A stretch of 64,000 nucleotides of DNA from Thermoanaerobaculaceae bacterium (lineage in GTDB: Bacteria > Acidobacteriota > Thermoanaerobaculia > Multivoradales > UBA5704): assembly GCA_963712665.1 (NCBI GenBank), contig CAVQIV010000021.1, forward strand, positions 161,922 to 225,921, written 5' to 3'. The notes beneath the pieces are model-generated. The model was not told the DNA's origin. It worked only from the letters and a program-made list of their open reading frames with translations, and did no database searches. Shown here piece by piece: positions 6,892-57,600 of this stretch; position 1 is the stretch's first letter, and every line of letters begins with the position of its first letter. The position numbers and the translations under genes were made by a program.

Positions 6892-7616
6892 GCCGGCCGC
6901 ACCGGCTTCAAATCCTCCCAGCGAGCCGGCTCGATCTCGACTTCGTAGAAGAGGTCTTTGGTTTTCTCCGCCGCCTTGAGAGCGGTGTCGATCTGGTCCG
7001 CGGCAGGCTGGAAGATGAAGGGCCGGCGGGGGTAGAGGCGATCGTTGACCCAGAAGCGGTTCCATTCGTGGGTGGTGGCGATGAACTCCTGGGTGAAGCC
7101 GGCGGCGGTGGGATATTTGCCTTCGACCTCGAGGCAGCCGTGGATGCAGATGTCCACGTAGGACTGCACGATCGGGAACTGGAAGGTGGGCAGGTTGTTT
7201 TCGATCTGGTCCGGCGGGATCAGATTGATGTAGGCCCACACCAGCCCCTCGATCGGCTTGTCGCGACCGTCGAGCATCTCGATCTGATCGCTCTCGATAC
7301 GGCAACGCTGATAGCCGGCGCTCTCCCGCCGGTCCGTCGCGGCGAGCTCCTCGGCGGAGACCTTGTAGATCACGCCGTTGCACGTTGCTGGAGGGAGCGT
7401 CTCGGCGATGACGGCGCCGAGGTAGGTCGTGGTCAATCCGCTCTTCCCGCCGCGTGCCCACCAACCCCGGCGGATGCCGCGCACCCGCGCCGGCCAGGCG
7501 TCGCGCGCCGACGGCGTGGTCCGCTGCCGCGACTCGTCCTCGATGAGCGAGCCGTAGCCGAAGATGTAGTTCTGTGGTCCCTTGGGTCCGCTGTTGCTGA
7601 TGTTGACGCAGTCCAT
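6888..7616 (-). CDS. Gamma-glutamylcyclotransferase-like (GGCT/AIG2-like) protein
   Basis: 242 aa. It has the N-terminal 'YIFGYGSL' motif characteristic of the GGCT fold. It converges on the VOC gene with a 4-nt overlap. Confidence 0.7.
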   Translation of the reverse strand: MDCVNISNSGPKGPQNYIFGYGSLIEDESRQRTTPSARDAWPARVRGIRRGWWARGGKSGLTTTYLGAVIAETLPPATCNGVIYKVSAEELAATDRRESAGYQRCRIESDQIEMLDGRDKPIEGLVWAYINLIPPDQIENNLPTFQFPIVQSYVDICIHGCLEVEGKYPTAAGFTQEFIATTHEWNRFWVNDRLYPRRPFIFQPAADQIDTALKAAEKTKDLFYEVEIEPARWEDLKPVRPA

Positions 7617-7628
7617 CTCTTTCTCCCC

Positions 7629-8519
7629 TCAGCCGTTCGCCTTCAGCTCGCCGACGATCATCTGGATCTGTTGATCGGGCTCTTCCATCAACGGGATGCT
7701 GCCGGCGCCTTTGTGGCCGCCGCCGCCGTAACGGGCCGCGAGCTCGCCGACGTTGGTCTTGCAGGTGCGCCGGAAGATGCTGTGGCCGAGGATCAGCAGC
7801 GGGAACTTGCGGTCCGGACCCCAGTGGATGCGCGCCGAGACGTTGACCTCGGGGTAGAGCGCATAGATCAGGAAACGGTTGCCGATGGGCGTGTGGTCGA
7901 GGCCGCGGAAGTCGGTGATCACCACGTTGCCGTCCACCCGGCTGTGCTCGCGTAGCGCCTCGCAGAAGTGCTGGTTCTCGCCCTCGATGAGCAGGCAGCG
8001 GGCCTTCACCGAGGGATCGTCGAGAACGTCTTCGATCGGCGTCTCGTTGCGCAGCAGGTCCACCAGGTCGTGGAAGTAGTCCTCGAAGTGGCCGATGCCG
8101 GTGCGGCCGTCGATGGTGAACCCAAGCTTGATGTAGCCCTGGGGATCGAGCACGTCGCTCGGCGTCAGGTCGGCCGAGTCGAGGCGGTCGGTCTCGCGCA
8201 CCAGCTCCGCGAACTGCGGCATGGCCGCCTCGCCGCCGTAGTACTCGTAGACCAGCCGCGCCGCCGACGGCGCCTGGGCGAAGGCGCCCTTGAAGCCCAC
8301 GGGCACGTGCGGCGTCGCCGTGTGCAGGTGGTGGTCGAACCACAGGGCGCAGTTGGGGTGGTAGGGGAGGTTGGCGATGACGTCGTCCGGCCGGATGTCC
8401 GCCCGCCCGTCGCTGATGTCCTGGGGATGGATGAGCGAGATGCCGGTGATGTCCTCGTTGACCGAGAGCAGCACGGCGCACGTCAGACCGTCGAGGTCGC
8501 CACGAGTTACGAGTCGCAT
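7629..8519 (-). CDS. DHH/DHHA1-family phosphoesterase (COG2404-like)
   Basis: It starts MRLVTRGDLDGLTCAVLL and contains 'WFDHHLH' (DHH motif) and 'YGGGGHKGAGS' (DHHA1 GGGH motif). Confidence 0.75.
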   Translation of the reverse strand: MRLVTRGDLDGLTCAVLLSVNEDITGISLIHPQDISDGRADIRPDDVIANLPYHPNCALWFDHHLHTATPHVPVGFKGAFAQAPSAARLVYEYYGGEAAMPQFAELVRETDRLDSADLTPSDVLDPQGYIKLGFTIDGRTGIGHFEDYFHDLVDLLRNETPIEDVLDDPSVKARCLLIEGENQHFCEALREHSRVDGNVVITDFRGLDHTPIGNRFLIYALYPEVNVSARIHWGPDRKFPLLILGHSIFRRTCKTNVGELAARYGGGGHKGAGSIPLMEEPDQQIQMIVGELKANG

Positions 8520-8609
8520 GGTGGCTAACGATTATAGCCTTATCGGATAGAATCTCCCCCAGCTATCCCAGTTTCATCGTCGCCGTCTCCTTCTTGGGAG
8601 GGCTCCACC

Positions 8610-10112
8610 ATGCTTCGCGAACGCCGCTGGTTTCGCCTCGTTGCCGGCCTGCTGCCGGCCTTGCTGCTGCTCGTCGCCGGGTGCTCGGCCAATCCGGCCA
8701 CGGGCAAGCAGCAGCTCAGCTTCTACAGCGAGCAGGAAGAGATCGCCATGGGCAAGGAGGCCGACGCGGACATCGTCCGCCAGGTGGGTCTCTATGACGA
8801 TCCGGCCGTCCAGGCCTACGTCTCGGACCTGGGGAAGAAGCTCGCCGCGGGCTCGGAGCGGCCGAATCTGCCCTGGAGCTTCAAGGTGCTGGACGACTCG
8901 GCCATCAACGCCTTCGCCCTGCCCGGCGGCTACGTCTACGTCACCCGCGGCATCCTCACCCATCTGGGATCGGAGGCGGAGCTGGCGACCGTGATGGGGC
9001 ATGAGATCGGCCACGTCACGGCGCGCCACAGCGTCAACCAGATGAGCAAGAAGACCCTGGCCACGGCGGGCCTGGGGATTGCCCTGATCCTCGCGGACTC
9101 CCAGGAGGCGGAGCTGGCGGCCGGGGTCGTCGCAGCGGGTCTGGGCCTCGTGTTCCTCGCCTACAGCCGGGGCGACGAGAGCCAGGCCGACGAGCTCGGG
9201 ATGCGCTATGCCCAGCGCTCGGGCTTCGACCTGCGCGAGAGCCCCGAGGTCTTCCGCCTCCTCGACCGCGCCCAGAAGGTCGAGGGGGCCGGCGGGCGGC
9301 TCCCCCGCTGGCTCTCCACCCATCCGGACCCGGGCTCGCGCCGCCAGCGCCTGGAGGAGAAGGTCACCAAGATGGAGAAGGAGGGCACGAAGTTCGACGG
9401 CACCACCGTCAACCACGACGGGTATCTCGCCCGGCTCGACGGCATGCGGTTCGGCGACGACCCCCGGGGCGGCTTCGTCCGTGGCGGTACGTACTTCCAG
9501 CCCCTGATGAAGTTCCAGCTCGCGTTTCCCGCCGGCTGGAGCCCTGAAAGGGAGAAGGATTCGATCCTGGCCCGGAGCCCGAAGGAGGACGCCTTCCTCC
9601 AGGTCGGGCTGGCGGGCGAGGGCTCGCCCCAGGAGGCCACCGAGGCGTTCTTCAAGGACGGCGACCTGACGCGGGAGAAGTCCTGGGAGCGCAAGGCGAA
9701 CAACGATCCCGCGGTCTGGACCCGCCTCGCCGCCAAGGTGAGCGGCAAGGAGGTCCGCGGCACGGTGGTCTTCGTCTCCCACCAGGGGGTGCTCTACCAG
9801 ATCCTCGGAGTGGCCAAGAAGGACGCGTGGCCCGGCTATCAGGCCGCTCTCGATCAGGCCATGGAGAGCTTCGCCCGCACCACCGATCCCAAGATCCTCG
9901 GCATCCAGGCGTGGCGCCTGAAGATCGTCCAGCTCAAGAAGGCCATGACCCTGGAGGAGTTCAACCACGCCTACCCCTCGGCCGTGCCCATCGAGACCGT
10001 GGCCCTCATCAACCACGTGGAGCCCGGGGGCACCCTGGAGGCCGGCCGCGCCGCCAAGCAGGTGGTGGAAGGATCTGTGGAGCCGCCGAAGCCAGCAAAG
10101 AAAAAGAAATAA
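8610..10112 (+). CDS. M48-family zinc metallopeptidase lipoprotein (BepA/YfgC-like)
   Basis: Lipobox 'LLLLVAGCS' and HExxH motif 'MGHEIGHVTARH'. 500 aa. Confidence 0.9.
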   Translation: MLRERRWFRLVAGLLPALLLLVAGCSANPATGKQQLSFYSEQEEIAMGKEADADIVRQVGLYDDPAVQAYVSDLGKKLAAGSERPNLPWSFKVLDDSAINAFALPGGYVYVTRGILTHLGSEAELATVMGHEIGHVTARHSVNQMSKKTLATAGLGIALILADSQEAELAAGVVAAGLGLVFLAYSRGDESQADELGMRYAQRSGFDLRESPEVFRLLDRAQKVEGAGGRLPRWLSTHPDPGSRRQRLEEKVTKMEKEGTKFDGTTVNHDGYLARLDGMRFGDDPRGGFVRGGTYFQPLMKFQLAFPAGWSPEREKDSILARSPKEDAFLQVGLAGEGSPQEATEAFFKDGDLTREKSWERKANNDPAVWTRLAAKVSGKEVRGTVVFVSHQGVLYQILGVAKKDAWPGYQAALDQAMESFARTTDPKILGIQAWRLKIVQLKKAMTLEEFNHAYPSAVPIETVALINHVEPGGTLEAGRAAKQVVEGSVEPPKPAKKKK

Positions 10113-10126
10113 GCTGAGCGGAGAGA

Positions 10127-10162
10127 CCCCCTGGGAGCGCCGGCGTCCCCGCCGGCAACTTA
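10127..10162. repeat. REP-like hairpin element, copy 1 (GCCGGCG-TCCC-CGCCGGC followed by AACTTA)
   Basis: Stem 10139-10145 pairs with 10150-10156. It lies between the convergent M48 and cytochrome c genes. Related copies are at 51936-51970 and 53541-53573. Confidence 0.7.
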
Positions 10163-10690
10163 CTTGGCTTTTTCTTCCTTCGCTTTTTCCTCTTTTCCCG
10201 GAGCCGCTGCCGGCACCGCGGCCTTCTGCTCCAGCAGATAGGCCAGGAGGTCCGCCGCGTCCTGAAGGGTGACCAGGGTGGAGTACTCGGGCATGGCGCT
10301 GGGCCCTCTGGCAGGGAGCGCCGCCCTTGCACTCCGGCGCGATGAAGGAGTCCGGATTGAGGATCGACTCGTAGATGTACTGCGCCGCCGGCTCGCCCTG
10401 GACCCGGTGGTCGGCCACGAGGCCGATGCTCCCCAGGTGGGGGCCGATGTTGTTGCTCTCGGGCACGTGCGGGTCGCCGTGGCAGGCGCTGCAGCCGTAG
10501 ACCTCGTCGTAGAGCCGCTCGCCCCGGCCGGCGTCGGCGATGGGCAGCAGCAGCCGCGCGTCGGGAGGCAGGGCCTCGCCGCCCCGCGGCCGCAGGTGGA
10601 AGTGCTCGGGAGCTTCGGGGATGGCGAAGTACGCCGTCTTGCGCCCCCGCTCGGTGGCGACCGCTGGCGGCGCAATCCCGATGCCGATCC
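10160..10690 (-). pseudogene. Cytochrome c domain gene: no start codon or signal peptide, plus one frame change
   Basis: The minus strand reads ...GERLYDEVYGCSACHGDPHVPESNNIGPHLGSIGLVADHRVQGEPAAQYIYESILNPDSFIAPEC (CxxCH haem motif). After a 1-nt shift (~10300-10330) it continues MPEYSTLVTLQDAADLLAYLLEQKAAVPAAAPGKEEKAKEEKAK*. Upstream, the frame runs without any ATG/GTG/TTG into the antisense of the MCO gene. Confidence 0.6.
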
Positions 10691-13600
10691 CAACAGCAAC
10701 TTCTGGAAGGGCCTGACCAAGGTCCCGAAGCAGACCTTGACGTCGGTCATGCTCGACTCGCAGTCGATCGGACCCGGCGCCAGCTACAACCTCGAGCACG
10801 AGTGCGGCGCCGGTGGCTGCCAGCAGGGCGAGGGCGAGTTCCTCTACCACTGCCACATCGGCCACCACTACGTCGGCGGTATGTGGGGATTCTGGCGCGT
10901 CTTCGCCACTACGCAGACGGAACAGTCCGACATGCACGGCCACGGGCTGTACGTCGAGCCCCGTCTGTATCAGGAAGACAACGTGTTCTCCAACGATGAG
11001 GCGCCGTCCAATACGCCGCCGCTGGCGGGCGTCTCGGCCGGGCAGCTCATCGGCGTCAAGGTGGACTGGAACCGCACCATCGTCGCCGACAGCAGCTTCA
11101 GCAACCCGTTCACCCAGGTCAAGCTGAGCGACTGGGTCTTCGGGCAGCTTCCCCCGCAGGGCGTGCGTCTGGACAACAGCGACGCCACGGTGTGGGACTG
11201 GACCTCCACCGGCGCCAACGACGCGACCCTCAAGGTGTTCGGCGAGCCGGAGGAGACCCGGCAGATGGCCAACTGGAAATCGTCCAACCCCGGGGTGAGA
11301 CCGGAGGTGATGTTCAACCCGAAGAACGGCCGCTACGCCTGGCCGCTGTTCCGGCCGCACGCCGCGGCGCGGCCACCGTTCTCGGCCCGTCACTCCGGGG
11401 CGCCGTGGCTCGGCGAGCAGATGATCCCCGGCCGCATGGACGGCCTGTGCGCCAACAACTTCGTGAAGGACGGCGTCAACGTGGGCTTGAAGGCGCAGCG
11501 GTTCTATCCGGTGAGCGCCATCACTCTGCCCATCCAGGTGGCGCGCACCACACCTCCCGCCGTGCCGGGCGGCCCGCCTGCGGGTCTCGCCGGGGGTATC
11601 GATCCCAACGGCATGATCTACGTGCTCAACGAGCAGAAGAACGACGTCCGTGCCGGCCTGCGGCCCGCTGAGCCGCTCACCCTGCGCTCCAACGTCGGCG
11701 ACTGCGTCGAGGTCATCTTCACCAGCGAGATCCCCGACGGGCCGCTCAACAACAACTACTCGAAGGTCAACATCCACAGCCACTTCGTGCAGTTCGACAC
11801 CCAGGCCTCCGACGGCGTGGTCACCGGCTTCTCCTACGAGCAGTCGGTGCGCCCGTACGCCACCGAGAACCGCACGCTGACTCAGGCGGTGACCCCCCTG
11901 ACCAGCACCCTCAAGGTGACCAACGTCAATCGGCTGCGGGTCGGAATCGACATCGGCATCGGCCTCGGGGAGGGGACCTGCGGCAGCATTCTGGGCCAGC
12001 CCTTCCCGTGCACCGAGGTCCGCAGGATCACCTCGATCACGGCGCCCGGCACCATTACCGTCGACCTGCCGCTGCTGCTGAACCACCCGGTCGGCCAGGC
12101 GGTGGGCGTCGAGTTCGTCAAGTACGACTGGTACTCGGACGTCGACGTCGGCACGGTGTTCTTCCACACCCACGTCGAAACCAAGGACTGGGATCACGGC
12201 CTCTTTGGCGCTCACATCGTGGAGCCGAAGGGCTCGACCTACCACGACCCGACGACCGGTGCCGAGATCCGCGCCGGCACCATCGCGGACATCCACGTCA
12301 ATCCGTTCTTCGGCGGCAAGCCGGTTGCGGCCGGCGTCAACGGCTCGTTCCGCGAGTTCATGCTCTTCCTGCACAACATGAACCCCGTGGTCGGCCAGTT
12401 CCAGTTCGGCGGCGGCACCATCAACCTGCGCGCCGAGCCCTGGTCGATACGGTTCGCGACGAACCCCGACCCGGCGAACCTGTTCTCGTCGACCGTGCAC
12501 GGGGATCCCATCACCCCGACGGTCCGTGCCTACGGGGGAGACCCGATCGTCTTCCGCGGCCTGGGCCTGGTCGACAAGGTGGGCGGCATCCGGGTGACCG
12601 GACACCGCTTCAACATCGAGCGCCACAGCGCGAATTCGGACCTGCGCGACACCACCTTCATCGGCATCTCCGAGCGCTACGACTTCGCGCTGGACGGCGG
12701 GGCCGGCGGGCCGAAGAAGTATCCGGGCGACTACCTGTACTACTCGACTCTGACCAAGGACTTCCAGTCCGGCGCCTGGGGCCTGATGCGCGTCTACGAC
12801 CAGTTGCAGGGCAATCTCCAGCCGTTGCCCGACCGGGATTCCCCCAGCGGCACGTCGGGCTTCCCGGCGTTCGCGCCGGGAACCGGCACGCCGGCGACAT
12901 CGCTCGCCGACGGTCCAGGCAACGCCTGCCCGCCGGCCGCGGTCCGCAAGACCTACAACCTGTCGATCGCCGACACGACCATCATCTACAACAACCTGGT
13001 TCCCTCTCCGGCCACTCCGGGACAGCCCGGCACCGCCTACTTCCTGAACGGCGACCCGATCACCAACACCAGGACGCCCATGGTGGTCCGCGTCAACAAG
13101 GGGGATTGCCTCCAAGTCAACCTCACCAACCTGCGCGCCACCAAGCGGTCGGGGTTCAGCGTCGGCAAGCTGCTCTTCGATCCGCAGCGTTCCTACGGCG
13201 CCGCCATCGGGCTCAACTTCGACTCGTCAGTGGCTCCGGCGGCGACGCGGACCTACGAGTACTACGCCGACAAGGACCTCAGCCTGGCGCTGGTGCTCAA
13301 CCTCTCCGACGTCAACTCCATCCTGACCGGCGGCTTCGGCGGTGTGGTGGTGGAGCCTCAGGGCTCGACCTACCGCAGCCCGGGAACCTTGAGTCCGCTG
13401 CCGGGTGACGGCGCCGGCGTCCAGGCCGACATCGTCACAGGTGGGCTCGCCTCCCGCGAGGTCGTGTCGCTGATCACCGACAACGAGCTCAACATGTCGC
13501 AGGACCACATGCCGTATCCCGACGCCAACCAGAACAACACCGCGGAGAGCTACACCAACGAGCCGTGGACCCTGCGCAACTTCGTGGCCGACCCGGCCAA

Positions 13601-48199: not shown

Positions 48200-48519
48200 G
48201 CGCCGATTCTAGGAAGCGCGTTACAACGGTGTCAATGCCGGATGACGCCCTGCGGCAACGCCCTTTTGCCGGGTGTCCACCGTTTTTTGCCGCTCGGCGG
48301 GTAGAAGACCTGGACAGGCCCCTGTAGCTCCAATCTGGAGGAATTTTGATGCCTCTGAAGTGACGGGAGCGCCGGAATTTGGGGACAGCCTGGAGATGTA
48401 AACGCTTACTGCGGCCGGTCCCACCCAATCTGCCCCCTGGCACAGAACATGGTAGGGTTCCGAATGGACCCTCGGGAAGCCGCGGCTCCCCGCCGCGAGG
48501 GTCGGAAGGAGATCGAACA

Positions 48520-50561
<2,042 letters not shown>

Positions 50562-50568
50562 AAAGATG

Positions 50569-50732
50569 GACCCTCACTCTCCCAACCCTCTCTCTCCCAG
50601 CCTCCCCCCCGTCCGCCGGGAGAGAGAGGGCTTAAAGAGGTTTGTTTCCTGCTTTTTCCTCAGACAAACTTCTCCCTCTTCTCCCGGCGGACGGGGGGGA
50701 GGCTGGGAGAAGAGGGCCGGGGTGATGAGGGC
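50569..50732. repeat. Long extragenic palindromic element, copy B
   Basis: The arms 'gaccctcactctcccaaccctctctctcccagcctcccccccgtccgccgggagagagaggg' and '...ctcccggcggacgggggggaggctgggagaagagggccggggtgatgagggct' are inverted copies of each other. The element is homologous to copy A at 26762-26942. Confidence 0.8.
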
Positions 50733-50765: not shown

Positions 50766-51929
50766 ATGGCCAAGCGAGTCGGCATCCTCACCGGCGGCGG
50801 CGACGTGCCGGGCCTGAACGCGGCCATCCAGCAATTCGTCTGGAGGATGGAAGACGAGGGTTATGAAGTGCTGGGGCTGCGCCGAGGCTGGGCTGCCCTC
50901 TTGAACGTCAAGCCCTACCACGCCGAAGACAACTCGAGCTGGCTCGTCCCCCTGACCAAGGCGAACACCCGCACCATCGACCGGAGCGGCGGCACCATCC
51001 TCCACAGCTCCCGCATCAATCCCGCCCTCACCAAACCGGATATCATCCCCGAGCACCTCCGGGACCGCGAGAACAAACGCCTACCCGACGGCCGCTTCGA
51101 TTTGACCGACGCCGCCCTGGAAGTGCTCCGCTACCTCCACCTAGACACCCTGGTGGCCATCGGCGGCGACGGCACCCTCTCCTTCGCCCGCCGCCTCCAC
51201 TTGGAAGGCGTGAAGATGATCGGCCTGCCGAAGACCATGGACAACGACGTCTTCGGCACCGACTACTGCATCGGCTTCTCAACCGCCATCACGAGATCGG
51301 TCACCTTCATCAACGATCTGCGGACCGTGGCAGGCTCCCACGAAAGGTATCTCGTGGTGGAGCTCTTCGGCCGCAACTCCGGGGAGACCTGCCTCCTCTC
51401 CTCCTACCTCGCAGGGACCGACCGGGCCTTGATCGCCGAAGTGCCCTTCGACGCCGAAAAAGTGGTGGCGATGCTGGCCGAGGACAAGCGCACCAATCCC
51501 AGCAACTACGCCGTAGCCACCATCTCCGAAGGAGCTTTCCCGATCGGAGGCAAGCCCTTCGAGACCGGAGAAGCCGACGCCGTGGGCAACCGTGAGCTGG
51601 GAGGAGTGGGGAGATTCCTCCGCGAAGAGCTCCAGAGGAATACCAGCGACCGCGTCATCTACCAGCGCTTGGGCTACCTCATGCGCTCCGGAGCCCCTGA
51701 CTCCTTGGACCGCCTCGTCGCCAAAAACTTCGCCGCCTTGGCCGCCGACCTCATCCTCGCCGGCAAAACCGGCCGCCTCATCTCCATCCAAGGAGGCCGC
51801 TACACCACCGAGCCTCTGGACATCGTGGGAGAAGGCAAGAAGCAAGTGGACGTCGAAAGGTTCTACGATCGCGAGAGATACCGGCCGAACATCGTGGGAG
51901 TGATGGGGTTGCCGATGTTTTTGTGCTGA
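50766..51929 (+). CDS. pfk: 6-phosphofructokinase (ATP- or PPi-dependent; not distinguishable by eye)
   Basis: MAKRVGILTGGGDVPGLNAAI, 'LVAIGGDGTLS', 'IGLPKTMDNDV' and 'VELFGRNSG'. Confidence 0.9.
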   Translation: MAKRVGILTGGGDVPGLNAAIQQFVWRMEDEGYEVLGLRRGWAALLNVKPYHAEDNSSWLVPLTKANTRTIDRSGGTILHSSRINPALTKPDIIPEHLRDRENKRLPDGRFDLTDAALEVLRYLHLDTLVAIGGDGTLSFARRLHLEGVKMIGLPKTMDNDVFGTDYCIGFSTAITRSVTFINDLRTVAGSHERYLVVELFGRNSGETCLLSSYLAGTDRALIAEVPFDAEKVVAMLAEDKRTNPSNYAVATISEGAFPIGGKPFETGEADAVGNRELGGVGRFLREELQRNTSDRVIYQRLGYLMRSGAPDSLDRLVAKNFAALAADLILAGKTGRLISIQGGRYTTEPLDIVGEGKKQVDVERFYDRERYRPNIVGVMGLPMFLC

Positions 51930-51989: not shown

Positions 51990-52286
51990 TCAGGTTCGCC
52001 CGAGCCAGTATCGTGGATGGCGCTTCTGATGCCCGACAGCCAGGATCCGAAGTTTCCCGGAGCTCAACGGCCGATACAGGAGATAATAGGGAAAGGTCGG
52101 TAGAACGAGCCGGCGGATCATTTCCAAGACTCGCGGCGCCGCCTCGGGATAGCGCCGGATGAAGGTTACAGAGTGCTCGACCTCGTCAAGAAATCTCTCG
52201 CCGAGCCCTGCGGCTTGCTGTTCATAGTACTGGAAGGCTTCGGCAAGCTCCCGCTCCGCCAGCCGATTGAAGCGGACACCCTTCAT
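51990..52286 (-). CDS. Type II toxin, RelE/ParE family
   Basis: True start MKGVRFNRLAERELAEAFQYYEQQAAGLGERFLDEVEHSVTFIRRYPEAAPRV...LLYRPLSSGKLRILAVGHQKRHPRYW. It overlaps the antitoxin stop by 4 nt. Confidence 0.8.
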   Translation of the reverse strand: MKGVRFNRLAERELAEAFQYYEQQAAGLGERFLDEVEHSVTFIRRYPEAAPRVLEMIRRLVLPTFPYYLLYRPLSSGKLRILAVGHQKRHPRYWLGRT

Positions 52287-52513
52287 TGAAGGGACAAACG
52301 CAGCCTTTTGAAGACTTCTTCCGCGGGGACTCCCGGCTCTTCGCCGATCTCCATGGCGTGGTCGCGTCTCGCCGCTTCCTCCGTCCAAGCGCGGGCGACC
52401 TCCGTATCCTCAGGATCTTTGAAGCTGAGGAGCAGGCGCTCAAAGAGGCGCGCCCGGTCCCCTTCGGGCAGGTTCAAGGCCTCGGCTTCGATTTCTTCTA
52501 CGGTACGTGCCAT
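52283..52513 (-). CDS. Type II antitoxin ('putative addiction module component' family)
   Basis: True start MARTVEEIEAEALNLPEGDRARLFERLLLSFKDPEDTEVARAWTEEAARRDHAMEIGEEPGVPAEEVFKRL. Confidence 0.75.
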   Translation of the reverse strand: MARTVEEIEAEALNLPEGDRARLFERLLLSFKDPEDTEVARAWTEEAARRDHAMEIGEEPGVPAEEVFKRLRLSLQ

Positions 52514-52526
52514 AGGGATCTCCTCG

Positions 52527-53450
52527 TCACCTCCTAGCGTAACATCGCCCTGAGATCTCGGCAAGTGATGGCCTTTCGACGAGAGCATAGACCGTCGAAG
52601 CCAGGGTGCTCGCCTGGGGAGACCGGTTGAGCCAGCGGTCCAGGGGGCGCAGAGGCCTGGTCAGCAGCAGGGCCGCCGCGGAAACCGCGCGCGCCAGGGG
52701 CTTCGAGGGGATGCCGTTGCGGAGGTAGAGCGAGACGAGGTCCAGGATCATGAACGTCGGACCCACGCAGGTCCCGGCGTCAAGTACGCGGAAGCCGCTT
52801 CTCCGGAGCAGGTGGTTGTGTCCTTCCAGTGTGTAGTTCTGGTAGTGATTGGGATAGGCGTGGTAGGCCTGAAGGAACGGAGTCGCGAAGTACCCGAGGC
52901 CACCGGGACGGAGGACCCGCCACATCTCCCGAAGCGCCCCGTCCGGCTCGGCCAGGTGCTCGAGCACGGCCTCGCAGTGCACGGCATCGACCGCCCCGTC
53001 CGCATAGGGAAGGGCATAGGCGTCCCCTACGACGTCGACATTCGGGAAGAGGTCGATATTGAGGTTGGTGAGGCTCTCGTGCGGCCTGCCGGGCCCGCCT
53101 CCGACCGACAAACAGAGGCTGCCCGGAGGCTGTGCCGCCGTGACAGCCTGAAAGGCCCTGCCGGACGCTTCGGAGCGATAGTCGTTGCCCGGCTGCACCA
53201 GAGAAGCCAGGAATCGCCTGGGCCAGGCTGGCCGCCGGGACAAGTACTCCTCATACATCTGCCCTCCCGCCTCCTGGCAGTAGCTGGCCTGCCGCTCGGG
53301 ATCGGCAATGAGAATCGGTACATCACCCTTGAAGGGGTACGTCCGCCCGCTGTCCAGAGTGACGAGATCCTCATCCACCACGAGCAGCCTCTGATGAGAG
53401 ACGGGGCAGACGAGTCTTCCCTGCGCAACCTGCTCCTGGATGCCCAACAC
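52527..53450 (-). CDS. Class I SAM-dependent methyltransferase with an N-terminal Trm112-like segment
   Basis: 'LVCPVSHQRLLVVDEDLVTLDSGRTYPFKGDVPILI', then 'CLSVGGGPG' (motif I) and 'DAVHCEAVLEHLAEPDGALREMWRVLRPGG'. Confidence 0.85.
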   Translation of the reverse strand: MLGIQEQVAQGRLVCPVSHQRLLVVDEDLVTLDSGRTYPFKGDVPILIADPERQASYCQEAGGQMYEEYLSRRPAWPRRFLASLVQPGNDYRSEASGRAFQAVTAAQPPGSLCLSVGGGPGRPHESLTNLNIDLFPNVDVVGDAYALPYADGAVDAVHCEAVLEHLAEPDGALREMWRVLRPGGLGYFATPFLQAYHAYPNHYQNYTLEGHNHLLRRSGFRVLDAGTCVGPTFMILDLVSLYLRNGIPSKPLARAVSAAALLLTRPLRPLDRWLNRSPQASTLASTVYALVERPSLAEISGRCYARR

Positions 53451-53573: not shown

Positions 53574-53750
53574 GGCGTCCACCGTCGGTTGGCCGACGCC
53601 GGCCAATGGCCGACGTGCAGTCCTCTGCCGGGGGCGGAGACGTGGAAGCCATTAACACCCGAACGACTCCGACTCAGAGACTGCGTGCAAGATGTACGAC
53701 TTGGCCCTAAGGGATCGATTCTCGGCTCGAACCTGCTATGCTACTCATTA

Positions 53751-54596
53751 ATGACTGACTCATCCCGTCCCGGAGTTCGCCCTCAAGAGGGCTTCAGGCC
53801 TGATACGATTCATGCACCGCTTCTCAAGTGGCCAGGCGGAAAGCGCAGGCTGTTGTCAGCAATAATACCCTTAATACCAATGGACTATCGGCGCTATTAT
53901 GAGCCGTTTGTAGGCGGCGGTGCAGTCTTCTTCGCCCTTAGGCCGCGCCGAGCATGGCTTTCGGATACCGATGCTGATCTCATCAATTGCTACCAGCAGG
54001 TTCGCGACAACCCTGAGGCGGTCATCCGACGGCTCCGCACTCTAAGAAATTCCGAAGGTGACTATTACTGCATACGAGCTAGCCGGCCTCGCGTCCTCGA
54101 CATCCGAGCCGCTCGGCTTATCTACCTGGCAACACTTTCATTCAATGGGATCTTCCGCCGCAATCGCAACGGAGACTTCAATGTCCCCTATGGATACAAA
54201 ACTCATCTAAAACCATGTGATAGAGAACGCATTTTGTCCGCCAGCACTGCACTCCGAACCGCTCGTCTCGAGTGTTCTGATTTTGAGGATGCTGTGAAAT
54301 CGGCGGGTCCTGGCGACGTAGTCTACTGCGATCCGCCATACACAGTGGCTCACGGGACCAATGGCTTCTTGAAATACAACGCTCGCATTTTTTCTTGGAA
54401 TGACCAAGAGCGCCTTGCGGCTCTTGCGCGTAATCTTGCCAATAGAGGGTGTCGCGTATTAATCAGCAACGCTAACCATCCCTCCCTTGTCGATCTATAC
54501 AAGGACTTTGATCGATTGGTCGTGTGTCGCCCATCCACCATTGCAGCTAATATTGCGCATCGCCAAGAAACAACAGAGTGCCTGTTCTTTGCATAA
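53751..54596 (+). CDS. Dam-family (D12 class) site-specific DNA N6-adenine methyltransferase
   Basis: Start at MTDSSRPG (ATG 53751). Contains 'LLKWPGGKRRLL', 'YYEPFVGGGAVFF' (SAM motif I) and 'VVYCDPPY' (DPPY at 54330-54341). Confidence 0.9.
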   Translation: MTDSSRPGVRPQEGFRPDTIHAPLLKWPGGKRRLLSAIIPLIPMDYRRYYEPFVGGGAVFFALRPRRAWLSDTDADLINCYQQVRDNPEAVIRRLRTLRNSEGDYYCIRASRPRVLDIRAARLIYLATLSFNGIFRRNRNGDFNVPYGYKTHLKPCDRERILSASTALRTARLECSDFEDAVKSAGPGDVVYCDPPYTVAHGTNGFLKYNARIFSWNDQERLAALARNLANRGCRVLISNANHPSLVDLYKDFDRLVVCRPSTIAANIAHRQETTECLFFA

Positions 54597-54611
54597 GGAA
54601 GGACGCTTAAC

Positions 54612-56915
54612 GTGCCAGAGAACATTGCTTCACGAGATGCCCTTCGTGGCCTAGCTCGCTCCCGTTCGCGCAGTTATGAAACGCAGACCGTACATACTTC
54701 TCACATAGAAGAAGCAATATCAGACGGCTGGACAATAGACAAAAAGAATCGAAAATCTGTCAGACTGCGCCGTCCTAAGTCTCTGGCGACGCTTCTCGAA
54801 GATCGTGTCTGGACGCTGCTATATAGAACAGGATTTTCTTTTTTGTCTGGTTCTGGCGGGGAAAGTTTCCTGCTCGACCCAAAGAATCAATCAGGTCCGT
54901 GCCGTAATTTGGACATTATTGGAATAGACGACGAACTGGTACTCGCAATTGACTGCGAGGCAAACGACAATTACGGCAGAGTCTCTCATCTAGCGAAAAA
55001 ACTAGCTAGCTATACTTTGATACGGGAACGCTTCGCAAACCTCGTTAACAAGGAATATCCAATTGCAACTAAAAGACAGGTTGTATTTGCAATGTTCCTT
55101 GCAAATGTAGCGCTGTCGGAGAATGACCGCGCCTGCGCAAGAGAAAATCAGGTGCTTCTCTTCGATGAACACGACTTGGATTACTACGAAACACTTGTAG
55201 GCCATCTAGGCCCAGCTGCCAAGTATCAGCTTTTCGCTGACATGCTTCCGGGTAAGACCGTAGCAGGCCTAGCGATCAGGATTCCAGCTGTTAGAACGAA
55301 AATGGGGAGCACTAACTGCTATACCTTTTGTATCACGCCAAGCTACCTCCTCAAAATATCCTATGTGTCGCATCGAGCGAAAGGAAGAGCGTCTGACGTT
55401 CATACATACCAGCGGATGCTCAATAAGGGGCGCCTTCGCAGGATTCGAGAATACATAAGCCAGGATGGAATTTTCCCCACGAACATAGTAGTAAACTTTG
55501 AGGCAAAGCGGCTGCGCTTTGAGAGAATTCAGCAGGAGGACCAGGAGAACGGTGTTCTAGGCTGGCTAGATATTCGACCAACGTACCGATCAGCTTGGAT
55601 AATAGACGGACAGCACCGTCTATTTGCTTACTCAGGGCACGAAAGAGCAAATACCAGTCGCTTGTCGGTGTTGGCTTTCGAAGGTCTTCCTCCAAGTAAG
55701 CAGGCTGGACTGTTTATCGATATTAACGCGAAGCAGAAAAGCGTCAAGCAGTCCCTTCTTCAGGAGCTTTACGCCGAACTGCATTGGGATGCAGAGGAGC
55801 CTGAGGTACGAGTAAGGGCAATTGTTTCTAAGGCAATTCAGATGTTAGATGCAGACCCTGAGTGTGCGCTGTATCATAGAATTCAGACCGCGGATGCCGC
55901 GAAGAGCGAGACCCGATGTATTTCGTTGACGAGTCTCTATGGCGCTGTCGAAAAGAGAGAATTCCACATAGCCAAAGAGCGAAAGGGGCAAGTCCTGGAG
56001 TATGGCCCCTTGTGGGGGGGCGATAACGACGAAACACTTCGCCGGACCTTCTTCGTACTAAAGAATTGGTTCGATGTTATACGGAGTGGTGCTCCAGAGT
56101 GGTGGGACAGGGGGGCCGGCGATGGCGGTGGCCTTGCTATGAATGATGGTGTGACAGCCTGCGTGAACGTCTTGAGGTCGGTTTTTGTCCATCTTGCGGA
56201 GCAAGGCCACAAGCTAGTGCATTTAGACTCTGAGGACTTGTTCGCTGTGATCCGGAAGTATGGAGAAGAATTGGGAGCCTACTTCGGCTCATTCACAGAG
56301 CAAGATAGGAGAGCCTTTCGTGACCTTAGAGGCGTCCAAGGCCAGACACGACGTACAAGGATGTGCCAGCAGGGATTGCACGCCAGATGGCCGGAGTTTA
56401 GTCCTCCAGGATTAGAAGAGTTTCTGCGCGAGCAGAAGGCTCAGACTAATACAATGGCAAAAGAAATAGTAGATCGAATCGAAACTTCTCTACAGAGGGT
56501 GGTTTTTGAGGAACTAAAGAGAGAATATGGGCCCGACGACTCGCAGTGGTGGATTCTTGGTGTTCCCAAGCCTGTTCGGCTTAAGGTTACCCAGCGTCGC
56601 GAGGATGACGATGGAGCACGTGGTGGAAAAGAATACTATTTTGATTTGATCGATTACAGAACGATTGCAACACAACCTCAGAATTGGCCTATATTCGAAT
56701 CTCTTTTTGGTTTTGAGAAGGGGAGCAAGGAGAAGCGAACCGCCTGGATGGTATTTGTCAACGAGAAGCGAAGGATTGTTTCTCATGCTTCGTCGGCTGT
56801 TACCATCTCAATCGAGGACCTCGGGAGATTACAAGAATATGACCGGTGGCTAGCTTCTCGCTTGGCGGGAGAGGAGATCGTCGGCAGTGAAGAAGCGAAT
56901 GAAGGAGATGACTAG
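54612..56915 (+). CDS. DGQHR-domain (DndB/ParB-Srx-like) protein with a C-terminal HEPN-like (Rx4H) domain and an unassigned N-terminal domain
   Basis: GTG start 8 nt after AAGGAAGGA. Contains 'YQRMLNKGRLRRIREYISQDGIFPTNIVVNF', 'AWIIDGQHRLFAY' (55605-55619), 'GLFIDINAKQKSV' and the C-terminal '...NWPIFESLF...WMVFVNEKRRIVSH' (R720..H725, 56769-56786). Confidence 0.85.
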   Translation: MPENIASRDALRGLARSRSRSYETQTVHTSHIEEAISDGWTIDKKNRKSVRLRRPKSLATLLEDRVWTLLYRTGFSFLSGSGGESFLLDPKNQSGPCRNLDIIGIDDELVLAIDCEANDNYGRVSHLAKKLASYTLIRERFANLVNKEYPIATKRQVVFAMFLANVALSENDRACARENQVLLFDEHDLDYYETLVGHLGPAAKYQLFADMLPGKTVAGLAIRIPAVRTKMGSTNCYTFCITPSYLLKISYVSHRAKGRASDVHTYQRMLNKGRLRRIREYISQDGIFPTNIVVNFEAKRLRFERIQQEDQENGVLGWLDIRPTYRSAWIIDGQHRLFAYSGHERANTSRLSVLAFEGLPPSKQAGLFIDINAKQKSVKQSLLQELYAELHWDAEEPEVRVRAIVSKAIQMLDADPECALYHRIQTADAAKSETRCISLTSLYGAVEKREFHIAKERKGQVLEYGPLWGGDNDETLRRTFFVLKNWFDVIRSGAPEWWDRGAGDGGGLAMNDGVTACVNVLRSVFVHLAEQGHKLVHLDSEDLFAVIRKYGEELGAYFGSFTEQDRRAFRDLRGVQGQTRRTRMCQQGLHARWPEFSPPGLEEFLREQKAQTNTMAKEIVDRIETSLQRVVFEELKREYGPDDSQWWILGVPKPVRLKVTQRREDDDGARGGKEYYFDLIDYRTIATQPQNWPIFESLFGFEKGSKEKRTAWMVFVNEKRRIVSHASSAVTISIEDLGRLQEYDRWLASRLAGEEIVGSEEANEGDD

Positions 56916-57033
56916 TCGCGAGCTTTTCGCTTGCGGAAGAAATGACGACCTGACCGTAAAAACGCGACAGAAGATCCGTCTGCTCCAGGAGGATGAGGTA
57001 ATGAAGTGGCCCGCTGTCTGCAACAACGATCAT
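56916..57033 (-). pseudogene. DUF3368 (PIN-like) toxin gene remnant, cut after ~39 codons at the islet boundary
   Basis: MIVVADSGPLHYLILLEQTDLLSRFYGQVVISSASEKLA... is a typical DUF3368 N-terminus. Its ATG overlaps the antitoxin stop (ATGA). The reading then runs into antisense of the DGQHR gene. Confidence 0.55.
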
Positions 57034-57313
57034 CGGCCCGAGAGGATTCCGAGGCTCCGGTGGGAGGCGAGGTCCTCTTCCAGATCGGCTTGCGTGCAGT
57101 GAAGGGTGAAGGGGCACCTTGTGCTCCTTCAACAGCGCGTGGACCTCGAACCGTGTCTCCAACCCGAGGAGACGCCGAACCTGCGTCTCGGTCAAGGCTC
57201 CCGTCCTGTAGCCCTCCACGGCGAGGGCCTCCAAGGCGTGGCGCGACAGGTTTCCCCCAGCGGCCCCCAAGGGATTCGGAGAGGTCTTCTGGCAGGCTGA
57301 TGGTGACTTCCAT
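57030..57313 (-). pseudogene. UPF0175-family antitoxin with two frame changes
   Basis: Three pieces in three frames: MEVTISLPEDLSESLG | AAGGNLSRHALEALAVEGYRTGALTETQVRRLLGLETRFEVHALLKEHKVPLH | ..ADLEEDLASHRSLGILSGR*. The shifts fall near the C5 runs at 57254-57268 and near 57103-57116. Confidence 0.55.
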
Positions 57314-57421: not shown

Positions 57422-57600
57422 AACGCCGTCTTTTGGCTTTAGACGCCGTCTTTTCCCAAAAGACCCCGTCTCAATCCAAAAAGACCCCGTCTTTTCCCAA
57501 AAGACGCCTTCTTTTTCAAAAAGACTTCGTCTTTTTGGATTGAGACGACGTTTAAATCCAAAAGACGGGGTCTCATCGGATTTATTCAGGGTCTTTTGGC
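57422..57600. repeat. Array 3: about nine tandem 20-21-nt units, each an AAAAGAC-N3-GTCTTTT-type palindrome
   Basis: Units start at 57441, 57461, 57482, 57502, 57522, 57542 and 57563. Perfect examples: AAAAGAC-CCC-GTCTTTT (57479-57495) and AAAAAGAC-TTC-GTCTTTTT (57518-57536). Confidence 0.8.

Follow-up and report, generated by a model that had tools for sequence, protein, structure and literature searches.

A mobile two-gene cassette pairing a Dam-family DNA methylase with a three-domain DGQHR protein that carries predicted nuclease modules

The analysed stretch, hereafter the window, comprises 64,000 nucleotides (nt) from a Thermoanaerobaculaceae bacterium (assembly GCA_963712665.1, contig CAVQIV010000021.1, positions 161,922 to 225,921), and the subject of this work is a protein of 767 amino acids (aa) encoded within it, directly behind the gene of a Dam-family DNA methylase. 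We consider that positions 53705-56919, which hold both genes, probably form a mobile defence or addiction cassette resembling a restriction-modification (R-M) system, in which the methylase would protect and the three-domain protein would be the effector, and we hold this view with considerable reserve. It builds on observed domain identities and conservation patterns, on the linkage to a methylase and on the mobility of the unit. The coordinates of all features are collected in Table 1.

The longest open reading frame (ORF) of the methylase spans 53589-54596, with the ATG at 53751 as the probable start; the homologues align only from about residue 71-77 of this long ORF. The product matched PF02086 (4.4e-52), TIGR00571 (212 bits against a cutoff of 114.85) and the PADLOC model MTase_II (2.8e-74), and the motifs PFVGGG (FxGxG-like) and DPPY can be read in its sequence. 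In the window, 15 nt separate the two genes, and the Shine-Dalgarno-like run in this gap, directly behind the methylase stop codon, implies an operon. The linkage was examined in 60 species-representative loci, 53 of which had enough flanking sequence to be judged. A Dam-family methylase was directly adjacent and on the same strand in 49 of these 53 genomes, upstream in 46 of them, usually 12-25 bp away, and downstream in three. The four exceptions were L032 and L034, which have an MT-A70 methylase next door, the partial copy L056, and L016, where only housekeeping neighbours were found and a C5 methylase lies 2.4 kb off. Moreover, the identities of methylase and effector to the window pair were correlated (Spearman rho 0.75, n = 39). 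The adjacency, this correlation and the cassette shared with locus L005, described below, correspond to the R-M hallmark of adjacent, co-inherited methylase and nuclease genes.

The two genes form a unit of 3.2 kb across which the GC content drops from about 0.67 to about 0.50. The blastn comparison with L005, which lies in a metagenome-assembled genome (MAG) of the Thermoanaerobaculia, showed that exactly 53705-56919 aligns, at 83% nucleotide identity, while the flanks are unrelated. As only the cassette aligns between the window and L005, it is a two-gene unit found at different sites in related genomes. Relatives with 45-65% identity occur in more than ten phyla (Acidobacteriota, Chloroflexota, Bacteroidota, Bacillota, Pseudomonadota, Verrucomicrobiota, Gemmatimonadota, Actinomycetota, Planctomycetota and others), and the cultured carriers include strains of Paenibacillus, Cohnella, Lysobacter, Terrimonas and Ktedonobacter. 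The family has a patchy distribution, identity between copies from different phyla is high, and the cassette is horizontally mobile. No terminal direct or inverted repeats were found at its ends, the search for a promoter or terminator gave nothing convincing, and no tRNA or Rfam features were present nearby.

The ORF of the effector proved to be as the initial annotation had it, with a GTG start and 767 codons for amino acids; the start is backed by the GGAAGGA run 8 nt upstream and by homologues that align from residue 1. All strings quoted earlier from its translation, namely EDRVWTLLYRTGFSFLSG, NLDIIGIDDELVLAIDCEAN, YQRML, FPTNIVVNF, IIDGQHRLFAY, FIDINAKQKSV, WWILGVPKPVRLKV and WMVFVNEKRRIVSH, were found there. 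Of the 8000 candidates scored in the homologue search of a collection of 5.8 billion proteins, 1479 matched at E <= 1e-3, and the best 120 of the 1479 are 721-808 aa long, with 58-70% identity and a query coverage of 93-100%. The three-part architecture proposed earlier, an N-terminal module followed by a DGQHR core and a HEPN tail, is colinear in at least 120 full-length homologues of 755-808 aa and in distant full-length relatives down to 27% identity, and, judging from these alignments, the layout is no chance pattern. The databases name the homologues only 'DGQHR domain-containing protein' or 'DNA sulfur modification protein DndB', and fragments of the family are labelled 'Holliday junction resolvase' in one source. 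When the PDB was searched by sequence, neither the full protein nor profiles of its N- and C-terminal domains gave anything meaningful. No full-length homologue was found on phages, where only DGQHR cores match. Stand-alone N-domain proteins were rejected as a separate architecture: most of the short matches end in out-of-frame junk or at contig ends, and are therefore fragments of full-length genes. Likewise, most matches of 280-660 aa to the C-terminal domain are N-terminally truncated members of the family.

From 71 sequences, AlphaFold2 (AF2) modelled residues 1-226 with a mean predicted local distance difference test (pLDDT) score of 91.2 and a predicted template modelling (pTM) score of 0.88. 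The model consists of a small alpha/beta subdomain (residues 1-56, with strands at 5-7, 22-28, 41-45 and 49-55 and helices at 8-18 and 29-37) and a core in which the elements follow the restriction-endonuclease-like order alpha-beta-beta-beta-alpha-beta. The Foldseek search of the PDB with this model returned almost exclusively PD-(D/E)xK nucleases as top matches, among them Cdn1 (8.9e-6), VC1899 (8.1e-5), Card1, Can2, the restriction-like endonuclease of the R2 retrotransposon, Nt.BspD6I, McrC, AF1548, Bax1 and Hjc, with a probability of 1.00 for Cdn1, VC1899 and Card1. In the Pfam scan of the 71 relatives, Hjc (PF01870) was matched by 49 (best 7.4e-6) and Card1_endonuc (PF09002) by 13, while a few matched NERD or Mrr_cat. 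According to the model and these matches, the N-terminal module has a PD-(D/E)xK nuclease fold, as was suspected when a restriction-endonuclease-like core was first read from its sequence.

The remark made at that time, that no clear catalytic Lys could be seen, was also right. The family consensus LEDRVW...QID...AIECKS provides an Hjc-type set of E63, D101 and E114-x-K116, while the window copy has E63, D101 and D114-C-E116, without the canonical catalytic Lys. Among the 120 closest homologues, position 116 is Lys in 106 and Glu in the window copy alone, and position 114 is Glu in 107 and Asp in three. The nearest relative, L005, with 90% amino-acid identity, has D114 together with K116 (AAA, against GAG in the window), so the change from Lys to Glu is recent. 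This substitution explains why no catalytic Lys was visible and why the window sequence by itself gave no Hjc match; at E <= 1 it matched neither the Hjc nor the Card1_endonuc profile. It also makes the DNase activity of the window copy uncertain. BamHI works with D94, E111 and E113, that is, with Glu at the equivalent position, and K116E is therefore no proof of inactivity. The dN/dS ratios against the sister copy L005 were 0.10 for the N-terminal domain, 0.02 for the core and 0.03 for the C-terminal domain, and on the first of these values we rejected the idea of a pseudogenised N-domain. As regards the residues that had been singled out for a conservation check, D101, R720 and H725 were numbered correctly, whereas those given as D113 and E115 are D114 and E116, and these two differ from the E114 and K116 of the family.

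The central domain is a DGQHR domain. TIGR03187 (DGQHR) covers residues 226-520 with 3.6e-43 and 148.3 bits, well over its curated cutoff of 58.85, and Pfam PF14072 (DndB) gave 2.6e-15 and 56.8 bits against a cutoff of 29.1; the PADLOC DpdB model (5.2e-26) and another DpdB model (1.4e-24) also match this core, whose earlier recognition was thus borne out. The signature of DGQHR domains consists of a QR pair, the DGQHR pentapeptide and FxxxN (PMC4619093), and all of these elements (Q267-R268, residues 332-336 and F368-x3-N372) are present and do not vary in the family alignment. The distant relatives likewise keep DGQHR and N372 throughout, and Q-H-R is invariant among the genome copies. Two more specific names were rejected: 'DndB', since the equivalog TIGR03233 scored 17.5 bits against a cutoff of 328 and there are no dnd genes alongside, and 'DpdB', since the equivalog NF041060 scored 86.7 bits against a cutoff of 300 and there are no dpd neighbours.

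The C-terminal part was modelled from residue 564 to 767 (pLDDT 90.3) and is entirely alpha-helical, with two long helices (about 565-592 and 601-639) in front of the putative HEPN domain. PADLOC PDC-M34B models match residues 601-732 (2e-8, 4e-4 and 0.03). A HMMER search with residues 591-767, exhaustive over 1.84 billion cluster representatives, found 586 relatives at E <= 1e-3, and the Pfam scan of 60 distant ones assigned HEPN_Swt1 (PF18731) to 29 (best 1.7e-8), HEPN_Apea to 11, DUF4145 to four and HEPN_RiboL-PSP to three. One homologue, P0255, reached 27.7 bits with PF18731 against a gathering score of 27.5; for another, P0223 (26.8 bits), the match spans NKIRNKVAH, which aligns with NEKRRIVSH of the window. 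The genomic context of P0176, a short stand-alone HEPN relative, was uninformative, as its contig is just 1.2 kb long. N717, R720 (codon 56769-56771) and H725 (CAT, 56784-56786) are each present in 120 of 120 close homologues, and among representatives at 50% identity in 118 of 134, 127 of 133 and 127 of 132, respectively, that is, about 95% for the R/H pair. The initial annotation had proposed that a lack of conservation of Rx4H would speak against a Swt1-like HEPN tail; the motif is conserved, and the assignment, reached transitively through homologues, stands as a sequence-based prediction.

The comparison of 45 full-length genome copies, the window's own included, revealed which of the domains are kept and which erode. 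DGQHR and the HEPN R/H pair are invariant in all 45. Of the other 44 copies, 29 keep the canonical D-ExK, L005 has D-DxK, and in 14 the residues E63, E114 and K116 (sometimes also D101) were replaced together, for example by R/D-K-I in Cohnella, S/D-K-I in Paenibacillus peoriae and R/M-N-I in a Pseudomonas MAG. The adjacent Dam methylase was retained in 13 of the 14 copies that had lost the PD-(D/E)xK residues. In a diverse representative set, the canonical site is present in 34 of 57. Taken at the level of sequence, the PD-(D/E)xK residues appear dispensable across the family, and those of DGQHR and the HEPN R/H pair do not. Had the PD-(D/E)xK DNase been the sole dangerous activity, its loss would be expected to relieve the methylase and the remainder of the protein of selection. 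Since both persist after the loss of the site, the activity that needs protection by the methylase most likely resides elsewhere, in the DGQHR and/or HEPN parts.

In the R-M-like scheme that we favour, the Dam-family methylase would mark host DNA with N6-methyladenine, and the 767-aa effector would be held in check on this methylated, self DNA. The DGQHR domain, which is ParB/DndB-like, would bind DNA, possibly with turnover of nucleoside triphosphate (NTP), and report the absence of the mark; both the NTP use and the response to modification status are suggested by analogy with DUF262-type enzymes. On unmarked DNA, the PD-(D/E)xK domain would act on DNA and the Swt1-like HEPN domain on RNA. 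The dependence of activation on methylation, the nature of the substrates and the way in which the domains share the work are proposed from the context, and any particular division of labour deserves less confidence than the overall logic. The initial annotation had suggested that a protein joining a modification reader to nuclease-type domains would be a compact sensor-effector, and both roles are inferences that the conserved adjacent methylase makes reasonable.

Several observations weigh against this scheme. The DGQHR domain is only a presumed reader of methylation, and DndB, which has been characterised, represses transcription of the dnd operon (PMC4507180). The literature yielded neither biochemistry nor genetics for any member of the family. 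Two homologues, L001 (8001-10301) and L016 (6001-8274), have no adjacent methylase. Distant homologues on plasmids (33% identity) have no methylase neighbour either, and are accompanied instead by DGQHR, radical-SAM-like and GHKL ATPase genes. GATC is not avoided in the window (526 observed against 384 expected), which leaves no restriction footprint, though this count says nothing on specificity, as GATC need not be the site of the methylase. The HEPN call gained no confirmation from structure: the window sequence itself falls below detection for PF18731, and the Foldseek search with the C-terminal model against the PDB and BFVD returned nothing significant (the best HEPN match, 4nqf, had E = 1.9, and the KEN domain of IRE1 had E = 4.5), a search that the two long linker helices inside the model may have harmed.

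Some of these outlying copies have features of their own. The PD-(D/E)xK residues of L001 and L016 are non-canonical (D-V-K and D-K-Q), and both may be orphaned or domesticated copies. On the plasmids, the three-domain homologues of L065 (pNL1 of N. aromaticivorans, 7215-11355) and L066 (an Agrobacterium plasmid, 7368-11591) stand beside a conserved trio of a short DGQHR protein of 335-342 aa, a radical-SAM-like protein of about 540 aa and a GHKL/HATPase_c_3 ATPase of about 510 aa, which could represent a separate DNA-modification module, not described so far, that works with effectors of this family.

The alternative that has to be taken most seriously, although we give it only tentative credence, is a sharper sub-version of the R-M-like scheme: methylation-gated abortive infection, in which DGQHR would sense unmethylated DNA and the HEPN RNase would be the essential output, leading to growth arrest or suicide. 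Self-marking by Dam or MT-A70 would then gate an RNase and not a DNase, and the PD-(D/E)xK domain would be an optional accessory, inactivated in about one third of the lineages and perhaps in the window copy. The erosion pattern agrees with this, as R720/H725 of HEPN and DGQHR are never lost in the genome copies compared, while the PD-(D/E)xK residues are lost jointly in about one third of copies with the methylase kept, and the window copy itself carries K116E. HEPN domains in R-M contexts have, moreover, been proposed as suicide RNases, acting as a back-up (PMC3710099). However, the RNase activity of the tail is only predicted, and the DGQHR/ParB fold could itself be a DNase or nickase that requires methylase protection. 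About two thirds of the copies keep the canonical E-D-ExK, and the N-terminal domain is under purifying selection; both facts argue that the DNase matters in most lineages.

The remaining explanations account less readily than the R-M-like one for the linkage to a methylase, for the invariant catalytic motifs and for the mobility. A DndB-like DGQHR protein might bind DNA and so govern, as a C-protein does, the expression or activity of the methylase next to it, with nuclease-like domains that merely bind nucleic acid, and both the regulatory role of the founding DGQHR protein, DndB, in the dnd operon (PMC4507180) and the degenerate PD-(D/E)xK site in the window copy and many others would suit such a regulator. 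We nevertheless find this unlikely: 767 aa are far beyond the size that a regulator needs, the HEPN R/H pair is invariant in the 120 closest homologues and nearly so in distant ones, most copies have a complete E-D-ExK site, and the score for the DndB equivalog is below its cutoff. It is similarly improbable, and perhaps a shade more so, that the protein is a Type IV-like enzyme of the GmrSD/SspE kind, directed against foreign modified DNA, with an unrelated or orphan methylase as its neighbour. The relationship between DGQHR and the DUF262 DGQQR domain of GmrSD-type enzymes speaks for it (PMC4619093), as does the fusion of a ParB-fold domain with a nuclease in both. The methylase, however, is adjacent in 49 of 53 loci and diverges together with the effector, as fits a cognate pair and not a chance neighbour, and no DUF262 or DUF1524/HNH match was obtained at E <= 1. 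Least credible of all is a housekeeping repair or recombination factor composed of an Hjc-like resolvase and a ParB-like DNA-binding domain. The Hjc matches of the relatives and the 'Holliday junction resolvase' label on fragments point that way, but such a factor would hardly be expected in a low-GC mobile cassette at different sites in related genomes, with patchy distribution, high identity across phyla, tight pairing with a methylase, a HEPN tail and resolvase-type catalytic residues that are often lost.

To place the R-M-like cassette among known systems, we compared it with enzymes and surveys from the literature. Enzymes of the GmrSD, BrxU and SspE group act according to the modification status of DNA: the GmrSD/BrxU type targets modified DNA, and SspE depends on host phosphorothioation. 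They resemble the protein described here in joining a ParB-fold DGQ(Q/H)R domain and a nuclease in one polypeptide in a defence context (PMC4619093), and differ in carrying a DGQQR/DUF262 NTPase domain with an HNH-like DUF1524 domain, while here DGQHR is combined with PD-(D/E)xK and HEPN modules and a Dam-family partner; neither DUF262 nor DUF1524 was matched at E <= 1. DndB of Dnd phosphorothioation and DpdB of Dpd 7-deazaguanine modification share the homologous DGQHR core, but are stand-alone proteins of about 350 aa with no nuclease-type domain on either side. The cassette holds the methylase and the 767-aa gene alone, and neither dnd nor dpd genes (dndCDE, dpdA/TGT-like) were found. Type II R-M systems with a Dam-family methylase (for instance of the DpnII/MboI type) are similar as mobile two-gene operons of a D12-class N6-methyladenine methylase and a PD-(D/E)xK-fold protein. 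Unlike in these systems, the effector is three times larger and includes DGQHR and HEPN, and about one third of the lineages can dispense with its PD-(D/E)xK residues, a loss that would be intolerable for a classical restriction endonuclease. Card1, Can2 and Cdn1 of type III CRISPR and CBASS-like systems gave the best structural matches of the N-terminal domain (Foldseek 8.9e-6 to 4e-2) and likewise place a PD-(D/E)xK nuclease under the control of a sensor domain in one polypeptide. Their sensor is a CARF domain, however, and here neither such a domain nor a cyclic-oligonucleotide system nearby is present, so that the likeness is one of the nuclease fold only (TM 0.27-0.38). With PADLOC PDC-M34 the resemblance is confined to component B, of which only the HEPN-like residues 601-732 find a match; PDC-M34A matched neither cassette gene, and the literature that could be searched held no account of PDC-M34.

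The 2013 survey of HEPN domains lists, among Swt1-like HEPN fusions, 'ParB (Saro_3948), mostly active' (PMC3710099, Table 1), and a review of defence systems from the same year noted frequent fusions of the COG1479/DGQHR family to nucleases of the HNH, PD-(D/E)xK-like and HEPN kinds, together with a link to systems that modify DNA (PMC3632139). The surveyed proteins are alike in combining ParB/DGQHR with a Swt1-family HEPN domain with an active-looking Rx4H in R-M contexts, so the fusion as such is not new. The listing is, however, one computational line, which gives no N-terminal PD-(D/E)xK domain for the prototype, no Dam partner and no mechanism. The pNL1 plasmid of Novosphingobium (N. aromaticivorans) encodes a 769-aa homologue with 33% identity over residues 38-725, which is probably the prototype Saro_3948; it differs from the window copy in standing beside the DGQHR, radical-SAM-like and GHKL ATPase trio with no Dam methylase. 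No experimental study or named system was found in the literature for the methylase-linked three-domain family, nor was a description found of its near-obligate Dam partner, its existence as a two-gene mobile unit or the erosion of its PD-(D/E)xK site.

If the R-M-like reading is correct, the cassette would be a compact and very widespread defence or addiction module present in more than ten bacterial phyla, in which self-marking by methylation is coupled to one effector whose domains, as many as three, target nucleic acids. It would also provide a function for many proteins annotated just as 'DGQHR domain-containing protein' or, wrongly, as 'DndB'. The nuclease site erodes repeatedly while the methylase, DGQHR and HEPN persist, and this natural experiment indicates where the essential activity lies; with a two-gene construct, it opens to direct testing the old proposal that HEPN RNases serve as a back-up for R-M systems.

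Table 1. Positions in the window of the cassette, its two genes and the predicted parts of the 767-aa protein, with the basis of each entry.
Feature	Position	Strand	Basis or remark
Two-gene cassette (methylase and three-domain protein)	53705..56919	+	GC about 0.50 in host about 0.67
Dam-family (D12 class) N6-adenine DNA methyltransferase, about 281 aa	53751..54596	+	PF02086, TIGR00571, PADLOC
Shine-Dalgarno-like GGAAGGA	54597..54603	+	8 nt before GTG; directly after methylase stop codon; sequence read
Three-domain protein, 767 aa	54612..56915	+	GTG start; stop codon included
Residues 1-56, small alpha/beta N-terminal subdomain	54612..54779	+	AF2 model, pLDDT 86-96
Residues 57-215, predicted PD-(D/E)xK nuclease-fold domain (Hjc/Card1-like)	54780..55256	+	Foldseek, Pfam in relatives, motif columns
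Codon 116, GAG (Glu); Lys in the family	54957..54959	+	Sister copy AAA (Lys)
Residues 222-531, DGQHR (DndB/DpdB-like, ParB-fold) domain	55275..56204	+	TIGR03187, PF14072, PADLOC DpdB
Residues 532-634, helical linker with two long helices	56205..56513	+	AF2 model of residues 564-767
Residues 635-750, putative Swt1-like HEPN domain, N717-x2-R720-x4-H725	56514..56861	+	PADLOC, PF18731 via homologues, conservation
Residues 751-767, variable acidic tail	56862..56912	+	Low conservation, pLDDT 58-59

The right end of the cassette (56919) abuts a minus-strand UPF0175 antitoxin-like gene followed by a PIN-like toxin gene (PADLOC PDC-S70; together 56932-57313). Homology to the PIN-like toxin extends over its first 34 or so residues only (57033 down to 56932) and is then followed by the cassette end; insertion of the cassette seems to have cut the toxin gene short. 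Beyond this toxin-antitoxin (TA) remnant, a tandem array with a period of about 20 nt and 5.6 copies (consensus ACGCCGTCTTTTCCCAAAAG) occupies 57423-57535. Another TA pair lies just upstream of the cassette on the minus strand (51990-52588), with matches to ParE (PF05016, 1.3e-9) and Unstab_antitox (PF09720, 1e-10).

A class I S-adenosylmethionine-dependent methyltransferase (Methyltransf_11) is encoded at 52527-53450, and a similar methyltransferase was seen near the homologue in L001. A stretch of 62 nt in the window (50670-50731) is 94% identical to positions 13229-13290 of the L005 contig, which is otherwise non-syntenic, in inverted orientation; it has no tRNA or Rfam match and may be a small dispersed repeat of the lineage. 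Further upstream, 48379-50561 holds two tandem ORFs of 390 and 337 aa that resemble glyceraldehyde-3-phosphate dehydrogenase by eye, followed by a phosphofructokinase-like ORF at 50766-51929; these ORFs have the GC content of the host and represent an ordinary housekeeping context.

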